28,641 nt of DNA from a virus. Lineage: Duplodnaviria; Caudoviricetes. This document shows positions 13,327 through 26,512 of this stretch, piece after piece. Both the position numbers and the translations under genes were made by a program. The stretch spans positions 1-28,641 of IMG/VR virus record IMGVR_UViG_3300012914_000006. The stretch is one strand, 5' to 3'. The stretch's first letter is position 1. Each line of letters starts with the position of its first letter. The notes beneath the pieces are model-generated. The model searched no databases. It was not told the DNA's origin and worked only from the letters and a program-made list of their open reading frames with translations.

Positions 13327-13638
13327 TCAATCCATTGCATCAAACGGGTGAATTTCTGTCACCCGTTTGCCCTGTTGACGTTTGGCCATGGCTGCCTGCT
13401 GTGCTTCGGCCTGTGTCTTGCGCTCATGATGCCAGGCACAGATGGCACGTCCATTCGTGAGCCGGTCATCCTGGCTCACTGACCAAGGGATGATGTGGTC
13501 CACCTCAGCCATGCGCTCAGTGCATCGTACTCCATCATCGTGCACCTCACACTGGCCCTCTGCCCTCAGGCGCACAGCACGCACGGTAGCCTGCCACACA
13601 GGGCTGTAGGGCCGACGCTGCCCAGTAGGCCATGGCAC
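13327..13638 (-). CDS. HNH endonuclease (terminase-associated, HK97 gp74-like)
   Basis: 103 aa; C..C, EVDHIIP, N..AIC..HH..KT motifs; immediately upstream of terS. Confidence 0.9.
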   Translation of the reverse strand: MPWPTGQRRPYSPVWQATVRAVRLRAEGQCEVHDDGVRCTERMAEVDHIIPWSVSQDDRLTNGRAICAWHHERKTQAEAQQAAMAKRQQGKRVTEIHPFDAMD

Positions 13639-15386: not shown

Positions 15387-15692
15387 TCAATCTGTGGAAG
15401 TAGGTGGACAGAAGTCGCAGCCGGAGCAACGCTGAACGTGCGTCCTCATCCGGTGGCAGTTGGCGCACACGAGATCACACTTCAATGACTCGGTGTACTG
15501 ACGGTCGTAAGAACGGCAGATGCCCTCACCCACTCCGAAGGACTTCTCGGACGGGTCTCTGTGATCGAAGTCGTACATGAACGCGGGACCGGTGAAGCCG
15601 CAATCGAGGCACTTGCCTCCGTGAACTTCAACCAGTTTCCGCTTGGTTCGCTGCCGCCACAAGGTGACCTGTGCGCCGTTACTACCTGGCAT
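15387..15692 (-). CDS. HNH endonuclease adjacent to the tRNA array
   Basis: 101 aa; CLDCG, DFDHRDP..K, KCDLVCANCHR.RT. Confidence 0.85.
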   Translation of the reverse strand: MPGSNGAQVTLWRQRTKRKLVEVHGGKCLDCGFTGPAFMYDFDHRDPSEKSFGVGEGICRSYDRQYTESLKCDLVCANCHRMRTHVQRCSGCDFCPPTSTD

Positions 15693-15720
15693 TCGAATTC
15701 CCTCCGTTACAAGGATCTTG

Positions 15721-15794
15721 CTCCGCCCAGTGGATTCGAACCACTAACCATCGGGGTAACGGCCCGACGCTCTGCCAGATTGAGCTAGAACGGA
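15721..15794 (-). tRNA. tRNA-Asn(GTT), C33 instead of U33, no encoded CCA
   Basis: TCCGTTC TA GCTC AATCTGGCA GAGC G TCGGG CCGTTAC CCCGA TGGTT AGTGG TTCGAAT CCACT GGGCGGA G. Confidence 0.9.
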
Positions 15795-15877
15795 TCGAGA
15801 GCAGTCGCGCGCTACCCGGCCGCCCGAGTAGAACCACTGTCCCATCTGTGCCTACCCGTTGACGGAAGGGCAGTTTG

Positions 15878-15945
15878 TCCCACGTCGAGGAATCGAACCT
15901 CGGACACACCGGTTTACAGCCAGCGTTGCGCCCAGCGCACTTGGG
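15878..15945 (-). tRNA. Atypical tRNA-Tyr(GTA), 68 nt, minimal D-arm, C1-G72, no long variable arm
   Basis: CCCAAGT GCGC TGG GCGC A ACGCTGG CTGTAAA CCGGTGT GTC CGAGG TTCGATT CCTCG ACGTGGG A. Confidence 0.75.
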
Positions 15946-16108
15946 TTGGCGATACGGCCCCCGTCGCCCCGACTACTAGGCGAGGATCAACGGGGGCCGC
16001 ACGTTAGGTGATGGCTTGCCGGGCCATCCGGCTACCATCTGTTCTCTCGATTGCCACCTGTGCACCCACTACGGATGCGCCCTGTGCTGACCACAGATGG
16101 ACGTGAAG

Positions 16109-16183
16109 GGGCGGAGGCAGGATTTGAACCTGCGACCGACGGCGTATGAAACCGCTGAGCTGACCTGGCTGCTCTACTCCGCC
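16109..16183 (-). tRNA. tRNA with CAT anticodon on an initiator-like body (Met/fMet-like, atypical)
   Basis: GGCGGAG TA GAGC AGCCAGGTCA GCTC A GCGGT TTCATAC GCCGT CGGTC GCAGG TTCAAAT CCTGC CTCCGCC C. Confidence 0.88.
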
Positions 16184-16293
16184 CTGTGTGCCTGGCCGCC
16201 CTAAGCATCGTGGTGTGCTGAACGGCGGCCAGGCCCTCCTAGCGTCCACCGGGGTCCTTCATAAGGACGGCCGTAACGCCTGGAGGAAGTTTC

Positions 16294-16450
16294 ACCGGTG
16301 CTCTGCCAATTGAGCTAGACCGCCCGTCACCAGCGATTCCTAGCAACCAGCCTGCCCGGTCGACTGTGCACAGTCTTGCGGGACGCCTGTATCGCTGGTC
16401 CTGACCTGGCTACCATGACGGCCGAGGGATTCCAACCCCCAACCTCCGGC
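16294..16450 (-). ncRNA. Circularly permuted tRNA-like module 2 (T-arm before D-arm, 92-nt linker closing the acceptor stem)
   Basis: GCCGG AGGTT GGGGG TTGGAAT CCCTC GGCCGTC [92 nt] GGCGGTC TA GCTC AATTGGCA GAGC A CCGGT. Confidence 0.65.
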
Positions 16451-16452
16451 TA

Positions 16453-16523
16453 TCCGATACTCTGCCTCTGAGCTACCCGAATGCTAGGCAAACGGGAAGG
16501 GACTCGAACCCTTGACCTTCGGA
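16453..16523 (-). ncRNA. Circularly permuted tRNA-like module 1 (YrlA/Y RNA-like)
   Basis: TCCGA AGGTC AAGGG TTCGAGT CCCTT CCCG TT TGC CTA GCA TT CGGG TA GCTC AGAGGCA GAGT A TCGGA. Confidence 0.78.
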
Positions 16524-16526
16524 ACG

Positions 16527-16597
16527 CTCACAGTGCCGGTAATGCTCCGGCAACAGGGTCCGGTTGAGGGACCCCGACATCTTTTGTCAGACTGTGA
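16527..16597 (-). tRNA. tRNA-like cloverleaf, nominal anticodon CAA, non-canonical D- and T-loops
   Basis: TCACAGT CT GACA AAAGA TGTC G GGGTCC CTCAACC GGACCC TGTT GCCGG AGCATTA CCGGC ACTGTGA G; all four stems fully paired. Confidence 0.65.
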
Positions 16598-16727
16598 CCC
16601 CTGAGTCTCGCTCTCAGGACGACAGTGGATCAGACCATCGTGTGCGTAGGGCTGGCCGGCCCTACTATGATCTTCGCCCCGGTTCGACCGATTGTTGTCG
16701 GCCGTCCGTGTGACGATGATCAGTACG

Positions 16728-16795
16728 CGCCCCGTCCAGGTGTCGAACCTGGCTCACTGGGTTTTGGAGACCCGGTGCCTCCCGGAGGACTGGAC
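16728..16795 (-). tRNA. Atypical tRNA-Trp(CCA), 68 nt, minimal D-arm
   Basis: GTCCAGT CCTC CGG GAGG C ACCGGGT CTCCAAA ACCCAGT GAG CCAGG TTCGACA CCTGG ACGGGGC G. Confidence 0.75.
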
Positions 16796-16879
16796 TGGGT
16801 TACCACACGAACAGTTGACGGTCTGATCAGGCGCGATTGCGACGACTCCTGTGTGCCGACGAACTGAACGTGTGGTCCG

Positions 16880-17023
16880 AGGTCACCCGAGGATTCGAAC
16901 CCCGGACACTCCGCTTATGGGCGGCTGCTCTGTCCCGACACACTGACAACCATCATCTGGTTGCCGCCCTCCGTCGAGGGTGCCCCTTACAGTCAGGCGG
17001 CGTGGCATCTGAGCTAGGTGACC
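16880..17023 (-). tRNA. tRNA-like gene (CAT in a 6-nt loop) with an 80-nt D-loop
   Basis: GGTCACC TA GCTC [80 nt] GAGC A G CCGC CCATAA GCGG A GTGTC CGGGG TTCGAAT CCTCG GGTGACC T. Confidence 0.72.
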
Positions 17024-17029
17024 ATGGCG

Positions 17030-17107
17030 TCCGTCCACCGGGCCCTAGTCAGTCGCGGTGACCGATGTGACCTTTAATGGGGGCTCACGGGATGCCCGGT
17101 GGACGGA
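17030..17107 (-). ncRNA. Structured element: 14-bp stem enclosing two small hairpins
   Basis: TCCGTCCACCGGGC / GCCCGGTGGACGGA; inner GTGA..TCAC and TCGGTC/GACTGA on the minus strand. Confidence 0.5.
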
Positions 17108-17215: not shown

Positions 17216-17224
17216 AGTGTAGCA
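17216..17224 (-). promoter_or_regulatory. Extended -10 promoter candidate for the RNA array
   Basis: TGC-TACACT just upstream of the first structured element; no consensus -35. Confidence 0.45.
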
Positions 17225-17260: not shown

Positions 17261-17542
17261 TTACTGACGACGGAACCTCTTGGACTTGGGCTCCGGTTCG
17301 ACGGGCGGATCGACTTCCAGGGGCACCTGGTCCATGCCCTCGATTTCCGGCTGGCTGATGACCAGGTGGACGGCGGCCGGGCCGAACATGTAGATCCGAC
17401 CAGGACGAAGGGGGGAGGTGACCGAGTGGCCGCCCCCTTCCATCACGGTCCACGACAACGAGGCGAAGAACTCAGGGTCGTTGAACTCACGAGGGACCAG
17501 CGGGGCGAAATCCGCTGCCCAGACAATCAGAAGGTTGTTCAC
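17261..17542 (-). CDS. Hypothetical protein (93 aa)
   Basis: GTGA overlap with the upstream ORF; AGGGG RBS. Confidence 0.7.
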   Translation of the reverse strand: MNNLLIVWAADFAPLVPREFNDPEFFASLSWTVMEGGGHSVTSPLRPGRIYMFGPAAVHLVISQPEIEGMDQVPLEVDPPVEPEPKSKRFRRQ

Positions 17543-18084
17543 ATTCCCCTACCTTCCCGGGCGGCCCGCAGACGACGAAGGGTGACCTGGCCGCCGGGGA
17601 CCTCGTACGTGCGTTCGACCCACTTCTCTCGGTAGACGGTGAGACTGGGTATCGGGGTGTGCGGGACCGAGTCGTCCCGGTGGCCGGGCTGACCCTTGGA
17701 GGTGCCCGTGATCGGACCGTGCGAGGTACGGGTAGCCATCATCCCGCCACTCACGTTCACGGTGGCCTGTTGACGACGAAGGCCATACCCGGCCCCTGGC
17801 CCGTTGGACTGGCGCAACTCGGCCTGGACCGCCCGTTCCTCGGGCCCCTGTTCCGCCGGGGAATCTGAGGAAGGCTCAAGTTCCGTGGAGATATAGGTTG
17901 ACAGGGCACCCTGGATGAACAGGGACCCGTCGGGCCGACAGACGACGTTGCCCAGGGCGAACAGGTCCCGGTCACCGTACCTCTGGCGGAACAGTTCCAC
18001 TTCCTGGGCCTGCTTCACGGACAACTCGGACACCAGGATGAGGGACGGATCGTCAACAGACGGGGTCAAGATCAACTCAGTCAC
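17539..18084 (-). CDS. Hypothetical protein (181 aa)
   Basis: Overlapping start/stop junctions on both sides; GAGG RBS. Confidence 0.65.
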   Translation of the reverse strand: MTELILTPSVDDPSLILVSELSVKQAQEVELFRQRYGDRDLFALGNVVCRPDGSLFIQGALSTYISTELEPSSDSPAEQGPEERAVQAELRQSNGPGAGYGLRRQQATVNVSGGMMATRTSHGPITGTSKGQPGHRDDSVPHTPIPSLTVYREKWVERTYEVPGGQVTLRRLRAAREGRGM

Positions 18085-25577: not shown

Positions 25578-25607
25578 ACGCTATCAAGCAGGCAGACGGC
25601 CTGTCAA
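25578..25607 (-). promoter_or_regulatory. Sigma-70/HrdB-type early promoter
   Basis: TTGACA-18 nt-TAGCGT, overlapping the 3' end of the HNH gene. Confidence 0.75.
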
Positions 25608-26024
25608 GCGGGGCGAGTAACGAATTGGATACGGCCACTTGGCCCCCTTGCGACTGTTGCACGTAGGGCACATCGGCCGGAGGTTCGCCAACACGTGCAA
25701 CCCCTTCCGGTGCAACGGCTTCACATGGTCCCAGGTCACCCCGGTCACCTCCAACGGGCAGTGGCAGTCATGGCACCGTTTGCCCCAGGTCCGCAGTTTT
25801 GCGGCCAACAGGGCGTCGGTGACCTGGTGCCCCGGGACCCGGGCCGCCTGTTCTCGAGCAGTACGGGCGTACCGTTTCTGAAGCTGGGTTGCCAGGCTGC
25901 CCGGACGAAGTCGACCTTTGTCACGGGCAGCCCGGCACTCGGGGCAGCGGGATTGCTTGGACTGAAAGGCTGACGCCTCAAGGATCCGGTCGCAGGACGT
26001 ACACGCCTTCCATTCCATGATCAT
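25584..26024 (-). CDS. HNH endonuclease with N-terminal zinc ribbon (146 aa)
   Basis: CTSC...CPEC; CHDC, WDHVKP, NLRPMCPTCNSRKG. Confidence 0.9.
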   Translation of the reverse strand: MIMEWKACTSCDRILEASAFQSKQSRCPECRAARDKGRLRPGSLATQLQKRYARTAREQAARVPGHQVTDALLAAKLRTWGKRCHDCHCPLEVTGVTWDHVKPLHRKGLHVLANLRPMCPTCNSRKGAKWPYPIRYSPRLTGRLPA

Positions 26025-26512
26025 CCCTCCATGGGGAACGGCACCCCGGCGGCACGGAACACCAACTGCCGGTCCGACAGCGGCACCTCGGCCCCCGGAT
26101 CGTAGGCCCACAGTTGCACGATGACCTCGTTGCCCGGACCCCAACACTTGGCGATCCTCTGCACCACCACGGTCCGATCGTCCGTGAACGTGAGCCCGGT
26201 CAGGGCGTCCTGGACCGGCTTCAACAGGTTGTCGGTGTCCGGCGTCTTCAGGTGCCACGTCTCCAGGGCCCGGTTCTTGGGCCTCAGGGCCTCGTCGAAC
26301 TGGACGACGATCCGGATCTCTGACGGCCCGTCGTACGGTCGCCACCCCTCAGGTAGCCGATCTTCGCAGGCCTGGCGAATGGTCGACTTGTACCGGGCGT
26401 ACTGGGCACCCCCTTTGTAGTACTGTTGGCCCTGGCGACCGGACACGAGGGCAGGACGGGGCAACGGGGCATGGTCCAACAGGGCCGCGAACTCGACCAG
26501 CAACCGGGTCAT
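26021..26512 (-). CDS. rusA: RusA-family Holliday junction resolvase
   Basis: K.PDTDNLLKPVQDAL.G..F.DD..VV signature. Confidence 0.9.
   Translation of the reverse strand: MTRLLVEFAALLDHAPLPRPALVSGRQGQQYYKGGAQYARYKSTIRQACEDRLPEGWRPYDGPSEIRIVVQFDEALRPKNRALETWHLKTPDTDNLLKPVQDALTGLTFTDDRTVVVQRIAKCWGPGNEVIVQLWAYDPGAEVPLSDRQLVFRAAGVPFPMEG

Follow-up and report, generated by a model that had tools for sequence, protein, structure and literature searches.

A likely non-decoding tRNA look-alike with an enlarged D-loop in the RNA cluster of a tailed phage

A tRNA-shaped gene in a phage RNA cluster

The window analysed here (the whole 28,641 nt of IMG/VR record IMGVR_UViG_3300012914_000006) is a tailed phage fragment estimated to be 46% complete. 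It has genes for terminase, portal, capsid, tape-measure protein, two lysins and a family A polymerase, which all lie on the minus strand. A cluster of RNA genes (17023-15720) sits between the replication genes and the lysins, and its first tRNA-like unit is our subject: a 144-nt gene (16880-17023) for a tRNA-shaped RNA with an 80-nt D-loop and a six-base anticodon loop. The lysins and the polymerase match those of actinophages (25-40% identity), which points to an actinobacterium as the likely host. A soil metagenome, run X1, may be the source.

The initial annotation had named the main parts of this element without giving a strand. All are present on the minus strand, and the gene reads from 17023 to 16880. 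The acceptor stem joins GGTCACC (17017-17023) to GGTGACC (16887-16881) through seven Watson-Crick pairs out of seven (mean pair probability 0.97); U73 follows as the discriminator (16880), and CCA is not encoded. U8 and A9 lead into a GCTC/GAGC D-stem (17011-17014 and 16927-16930). The D-loop that it encloses (16931-17010) starts with A14 and G15 and ends with GGGACA, offering candidates for G18, G19, A20 and A21 (inferred numbering). The anticodon arm (16910-16925) has four pairs plus G27-A43, and its loop CCATAA (16920-16915) lacks U33. A variable loop GTGTC, whose C48 could pair with G15, precedes the T-arm (16888-16904) with its loop TTCGAAT. Set against canonical tRNA (RF00005), the element has the 7-bp acceptor stem, the D-stem, the T-arm with TTCRA, U8/A14 and G15-C48, but neither a 7-nt anticodon loop with U33 nor a D-loop of ~7-11 nt. 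ARAGORN did not call it in the window, and an Rfam search of the whole window at E<=1 gave no match on it, not even to RF00005.

Within the D-loop, a 66-nt insert domain (16939-17004) is closed by its own CACRC/GTGTG stem. The predicted fold is a three-way junction, with the closing stem at 17004-17000/16943-16939, an interrupted rod at 16999-16965 and a hairpin, CAACCA-GAYGA-TGGTTG, at 16963-16947. Two hairpins had been described in the insert at the outset. Across three alleles the CAACCA/TGGTTG hairpin holds up, with a mean pair probability of 0.72-0.91, but the other, CCCTC-GACG-GAGGG (0.56, 0.06 and 0.22), belongs to an alternative two-hairpin form of the rod region; in these models it is one of two possible folds, competing with the longer rod. 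The three-way junction pairs in 132 of 132 cells across the three alleles, and a fold in the style of the initial annotation in 124 of 126. The closing stem is kept in L001 by a change from G-U to A-U. The insert alone folds modestly better than shuffles (z -1.67, with 17 of 200 shuffles as good), and the whole 144 nt gives z -2.05. The modelled folds support a self-closed domain on a tRNA scaffold.

A CAT anticodon had also been proposed. CAT does lie within CCATAA, but it is only one of the possible readings of a six-base loop. The 3′ half of the element best matches tRNA-Arg genes of Streptomyces and Pseudomonas phages (83-85% identity over 46 nt), with Met/Ile2 next, and aligns to these phage tRNAs with a one-base gap in the anticodon loop. 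The isotype label Met/Ile2 is thus uncertain; the body appears Arg-like or Ile2/Met-like, with U73.

The element could still function in translation as a nuclease-resistant tRNA (Ile2/Met or Arg), one able to bear the D-loop domain and to decode weakly through its six-base loop, but we regard this as most improbable. Six-base anticodon loops reportedly allow weak decoding, which would count in favour. So would partial agreement with the determinants in Table 1 of PMC9976931, both for bacterial Ile (C4-G69, U12-A23, C29-G41 and CAU-AA) and for Arg (A20, G2-C71 and U73). By the same table the identity set is nevertheless incomplete, since the element has U73 where Ile and Met need A73 and has no clear C35, which Arg needs. 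U33 is missing as well, and the cluster already holds an intact fMet-type CAU tRNA, identified with Rfam.

Conservation and recurrence of the design

The element is found whole in L001/L030, L031 and run X3 and in part in runs X2 and X4, and is therefore not an assembly slip; runs X5-X8 do not cover it, and no RNA run is listed among its carriers. It is the most conserved block shared with the L001/L010 phage, at 96.6% identity to L010 over 16878-17025, while other aligned blocks of the two phages show 72-91%. None of the 64 core bases differs and 5 of the 80 D-loop bases do, whereas between the same phages the terminase gene differs at 107 of its 259 four-fold sites (41%) and a lysin gene at 28 of 86 (binomial P 1e-8 to 1e-12 for the element against silent sites). 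On either side, the edge of the conserved block is no more than 2 nt from the acceptor stem. The five changes, every one a transition, include two that replace G-U by A-U; the other three lie at loop or junction positions in the three-way fold. The loop CCATAA is identical in all three alleles, those of the window, L001 and L031.

The block boundaries favour selection on an RNA over module exchange, and, judged from these alignments, the tRNA-shaped RNA is real and under selection. A unique recent insertion with no conservation, which would have told against the initial annotation, is not what we see: core and insert are both far better conserved than silent sites. Together with the self-closed insert, this agrees with the earlier proposal of a distinct RNA domain displayed on a tRNA scaffold. 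A plus-strand open reading frame (ORF) of 74 codons (16837-17061) was considered as a protein-coding alternative and rejected, because the five base changes within the element alter four residues and the ends of the frame are not conserved in L001.

To find comparable genes we scanned viral contigs for tRNA 3′ halves with a D-stem 5′ strand far upstream; the scans yielded at least 119 loci in 60 of 64 parts and at least 120 loci in 41 of 64 parts. Tandem or duplicated units, and units with a normal D-arm, were dropped. The resulting class has at least 55 loci, the window included, in at least 40-41 clusters (~40 lineages), with D-loops of 23-81 nt. The inserts lie on one side of the GG or the other. 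By eye they seem unrelated; they have no common boundary bases and vary in length continuously over the whole 23-81-nt range; the smallest are single hairpins.

The counts in this paragraph hold among the matches listed. After the exclusions, at least six of the seven acceptor pairs, which the pattern did not require, are present in 14 of the 16 long matches and in 41 of the 73 shorter ones, and these make up the class. Where the D-loop is at least 36 nt long, a non-canonical anticodon loop occurs in 11 of 23 clusters, a count that includes the window's own family and keeps apart L064/L157 and L151, which are likely one family, against 7 of 66-71 control tRNAs (P 2-4e-4). A six-base loop occurs in 5 of these 23 clusters against one control (P 0.003-0.004), and in 21 of the 23 the insert has a better fold than its shuffles (mean z -1.7). 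With D-loops of 23-35 nt, odd anticodon loops were seen in 4 of 17-18 clusters (P 0.22 against controls). Canonical anticodon loops are kept in 12 of 23 long-loop and 13-14 of 17-18 short-loop clusters, so a D-loop domain alone does not mean that a gene is non-decoding; these members also lend something to the notion, weighed above, of a working tRNA.

A second family (L165, L220, L253, L258, L264 and L278) has a divergent D-loop insert, yet the six-base loop CTCACG is kept at each of its six loci. We found no description of D-loop-expanded phage tRNAs in the literature, where supplementary files 1, 2 and 4 of PMC10690425 are unsearchable and might list the element's family; look-up by term returned no D-loop inserts from PMC10690425, PMC5389517 or PMC7162821.

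Two further scans bound the class. A GTDB scan for D-loops of 52-82 nt with a 7-nt anticodon loop without U33, a pattern blind to six-base loops and to canonical members, gave 54 loci, none of them D-loop-expanded. A viral scan for D-loops of 83-113 nt with six-base spacing gave 16 loci, all tandem arrays. The GTDB loci (L280-L333) are all tandem or partly duplicated; most, in Mesorhizobium, Pseudomonas, Lysobacter and others, are tandem tRNA-like pairs whose anticodon loops are scrambled. Of five loci tested, two gave weak YrlA matches, and these tandem units are probably Y RNA pairs, to judge from their sequences.

Several viral loci deserve separate mention. The D-loop-expanded tRNAs of L139, L167, L228 and L241 have ACU and AUU, rare A34 anticodons, and some of them have Arg-like bodies. 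L221 and L226, which were left out of the D-loop counts, read by eye as having CUA (amber) for an anticodon and two hairpins in the variable region. Units at L225 2494-2607 and L202 2493-2594 are D-loop-expanded, have odd anticodon loops and adjoin terminase genes; the former lies antisense between terminase and portal.

The same two features, D-loop domain and altered anticodon loop, thus occur together in unrelated lineages, and this bears on whether the element is a relic: a tRNA gene that was damaged, took up an insertion and has lately been exchanged between phages, and that has no current function. The cluster is a mosaic with several degenerate units, there are three close alleles only, and the z-score of the insert is modest, all of which would suit a mosaic passenger of this kind. 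We nonetheless hold it to be quite unlikely. Besides the recurrence, conservation stops at the ends of the acceptor stem, the core is invariant and every change is compatible with a fold.

The recurrence bears likewise on the suggestion, made in the initial annotation, that the insert is removable. It would then be a new small intron, either self-splicing or cut out by a nuclease and a ligase of unknown identity, leaving a tRNA-like RNA of ~73 nt. This seems very unlikely to us. At 66-80 nt the insert is far below the usual size of group I introns. Removing 70-72 nt can, it is true, leave a canonical-looking D-loop of 8-10 nt, which ten cut pairs do, one of them with U before the cut and G as the last removed base. 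A relative, G006, encodes an RNA ligase (PF09414; L343 8715-9494, minus strand), and the Lak phages have unexplained tRNA introns (PMC6784885). Splicing is disfavoured because the product would still carry the six-base anticodon loop, because no Rfam intron or ribozyme matches the element or 20 class loci at E<=5, and because the class has no common junction, insert boundaries and positions varying across its ~40 lineages. The predicted folds show no clear bulge-helix-bulge by eye, and a search for the ligase in G000 and G011, which are both fragments, and in G013 and G014 did not find it. Lak introns, for their part, start at positions 37-41, outside the D-loop, in all rows of Table S6 of PMC6784885 that give coordinates (14 of 15 rows).

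No insert-less allele was found in a metagenome scan for the six-base-loop 3′ half, which returned 18 loci. Three belong to the element's family (L028, the window's own sequence, L030 and L031) and all three carry the insert; the other 15 are unrelated. Searched on its own against 50,697 phage records, the insert gave six chance-level matches (best E 2). With no insert-less relative, no intron or ribozyme match and no common boundary, the removable insert finds little support. The bolder variant, in which D-loop inserts would be a new kind of bacterial-side tRNA intron, is highly unlikely.

Other RNAs of the cluster

Upstream of the element by 193 nt is an extended -10 promoter-like motif, TGCTACACT (17216-17224, minus strand), which has four matches on the whole minus strand; the pattern TGnTAnnnT also lies ahead of the clusters in L001, L031 and L003. 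A scan for a sigma-70 promoter and a terminator found none, and no related loci were found for the ORF at 17539-18084. Searched against the same 50,697 phage records, the whole RNA cluster gave ordinary tRNA matches only.

The rest of the cluster (15720-16800, minus strand) holds a Trp-like unit, a conserved structured block, a YrlA-like permuted unit, an anticodon-expanded unit, the fMet-type tRNA, a Tyr-like unit and a tRNA-Asn. The neighbours of the element are also tRNA mimics. The degenerate Trp-like (16727-16800) and Tyr-like (15877-15945) units, both on the minus strand, are called by ARAGORN and not by Rfam; the former is absent from L001, L031, X2 and X3, and the latter is 84% identical in L011.

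The permuted YrlA-like mimic has the order T-arm, closed acceptor, D-arm and lies at 16452-16521 (minus strand) in the window, ~2226-2300 in L001, ~1423-1498 in L031 and ~699-845 in L003. Rfam scores the window unit as YrlA at 29.9 bits, against a cut-off of 69. Its T-stem shows compensatory changes in L001; the L003 version has the motif GNCGAAN0-1G and a long acceptor-loop insert, and the window version is without the first G. The conserved structured block (16531-16666, minus strand) stands upstream of it, and the two are covered by an alignment of 87% identity to L001 over 16446-16666. The block shows an apparent three-pair compensatory change by eye and no Rfam match, and it may form one larger RNA with the YrlA-like unit.

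The unit at ~16223-16324 (minus strand) is tRNA-like, with a 7-bp acceptor stem and D-arm, a long anticodon insert and a decayed T-loop; L031 and run X3 have a different sequence in place of the insert. A tRNA-like unit at L003 317-374 has acceptor, D- and T-arms intact and an anticodon arm that is almost gone. Three HNH endonuclease genes lie on the minus strand of the window (25584-26345, 15387-15692 and 13327-13638), one of them directly after the RNA cluster, and they may contribute to its mosaicism.

Possible role and known systems

From its sequence, the element is likely an unspliced, non-decoding tRNA look-alike. Transcription would start from the extended -10 motif (17224-17216), with the element first in the cluster. 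As in established tRNA biology, host RNase P would cut at G1, the 3′ end would be trimmed and CCA might be added, giving a stable RNA of ~144-147 nt. The bases needed for an L-shaped core are in place (U8, A14, G15-C48, the GG near the 3′ end of the D-loop and the T-loop), and the insert domain would project from the D-loop. Lacking U33, with six loop bases and no complete synthetase set, the RNA would decode poorly or not at all. We consider these four steps, taken jointly, probable.

A fifth step is the least certain. Phage tRNAs with altered anticodon loops are said to counter tRNA-cleaving defences (PMC10264068, PMC11464382, PMC11555353) by replacing the cut host tRNA in translation; the element, which unlike them likely cannot decode, could act only as a decoy. 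It might tie up a host enzyme that attacks tRNA, such as an anticodon nuclease or a 3′-end-modifying toxin, while the added domain might make the RNA more stable, keep it away from ribosomes or bind another partner. We put this forward tentatively. The reading that we favour overall, with somewhat less than even confidence, joins these steps: a conserved tRNA-shaped RNA with a 66-nt D-loop domain and a six-base anticodon loop, likely unspliced and non-decoding, which serves as a decoy or mimic for host proteins that recognise tRNA. What leads us to it is the stronger conservation of the body compared with the insert, together with the fact that phage tRNA genes are known to counter tRNA-cleaving defences.

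The tRNA body might instead be only a scaffold that marks where the cluster transcript is processed. Host RNase P and RNase Z would cut it, which would punctuate the transcript and protect the D-loop domain, and this domain would be the active part, a protein- or RNA-binding cargo. The element is indeed the first unit behind the putative promoter, its acceptor stem and T-arm are perfect, and its insert is conserved at 75 of 80 positions; moreover, a YrlA RNA of M. smegmatis whose acceptor stem has 7 bp is a substrate of RNase P and gains a CCA end (PMC4201824). Such a scaffold is unlikely, though, since in the element, as in the L165 family, the anticodon arm and its six-base loop do not vary and the insert is more variable, a pattern that suggests the body is the surface under selection; also, the inserts of separate lineages look unrelated by eye.

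Several observations weigh against a selected decoy or mimic. Unconstrained folding gives the D-stem a low pair probability (0.23-0.41), and the minimum free energy structure does not contain it. Across the three full alleles, the only ones known, the insert shows no double-sided change in either fold, so that its fold is only predicted. Recent module exchange between phages could also yield high identity, and a more distant relative, L003, has another set of mimics and, by eye, not the element. Within the class, the make-up of the 11-of-23 count and the many canonical anticodon loops tell the same way, and no shared neighbour gene family was found around class members (65 of 81 and 102 of 131 listed ORFs scanned).

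Since both ARAGORN and Rfam miss the element, D-loop-expanded phage RNAs are probably undercounted in phage annotation. The class offers a natural series, with D-loops of 23-81 nt and anticodon loops either canonical or disabled, and opens two questions: how large an RNA load on the D-loop is tolerated in translation, and whether non-decoding tRNA mimics act against host defences.

Known systems share parts of this design. Phage tRNA-Arg(UCU) and tRNA-Ile2/Met(CAU) genes (RF00005) have the same standard acceptor stem, D-stem, T-arm and variable loop; unlike them, the element has an 80-nt D-loop, a six-base loop without U33 and an incomplete identity set. Archaeal bulge-helix-bulge introns occur at non-canonical positions in the D-loop, and they too are short structured inserts, but the element has no clear bulge-helix-bulge by eye; we know of no EndA splicing endonuclease in bacteria. 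The 'enigmatic' tRNA introns of Lak megaphages are conserved inserts of ~20-140 nt with no known splicing route; as tabulated in PMC6784885, they start at positions 37-41 of otherwise decodable tRNAs, whereas the element has its insert in the D-loop and a defective anticodon loop. Bacterial Y RNAs (YrlA, RF02553; D. radiodurans Yrn1) are non-decoding tRNA mimics handled by tRNA enzymes, and Yrn1 has been modelled with a six-base anticodon loop, in the parts of PMC4201824 that treat them. The order of YrlA is permuted (T-acceptor-D) while that of the element is normal, and 16880-17023 has no YrlA match; the YrlA-like unit of the cluster lies 360 nt downstream. A Ro60/TROVE gene was found in none of four records (G000, G006, G011 and G012), three of which are fragments.

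The nearest likeness in layout is RNA C of phage T4 (species 1 RNA, rnaC; NC_000866.4 70908-71046), an RNA of ~140 nt from the T4 tRNA cluster. Its fold comprises an acceptor-like stem, then a long rod at the D position, a hairpin with a six-base loop at the anticodon position and a T-arm, so that the order of parts, the size and the setting in a phage tRNA cluster agree with those of the element. Four rnaC homologs chosen from 748 matching records all keep the six-base loop, with 7 of 28 pairs changed on both sides. RNA C has been seen on northern blots as a late RNA, and its function is listed as unknown in the passages on it in PMC9697503, PMC3014915 and PMC12685909. It differs in lacking U8-A9 and the GCUC/GAGC D-stem, in its 10-bp stem at the anticodon position and in having no variable loop, where the body of the element is close to that of a standard tRNA; RNA C is found in T-even phages of enterobacteria, and the inferred host of the element is an actinobacterium. 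rnaC was not among the matches shown for the cluster, the 3′ half or the insert, and by eye only the T-arm motif is common. We therefore speak of an analogue of RNA C rather than a demonstrated homologue. Phages may repeatedly have grafted a D-loop domain onto tRNA genes and shortened the anticodon loop to six bases, with RNA C as the oldest example of a class that inhibits tRNA-cleaving or tRNA-modifying host defences, a generalisation that we regard as doubtful. The shared layout nevertheless ties the class to RNA C, and by this analogy the element is one of many phage tRNA-like genes that resemble the still unexplained RNA of T4.
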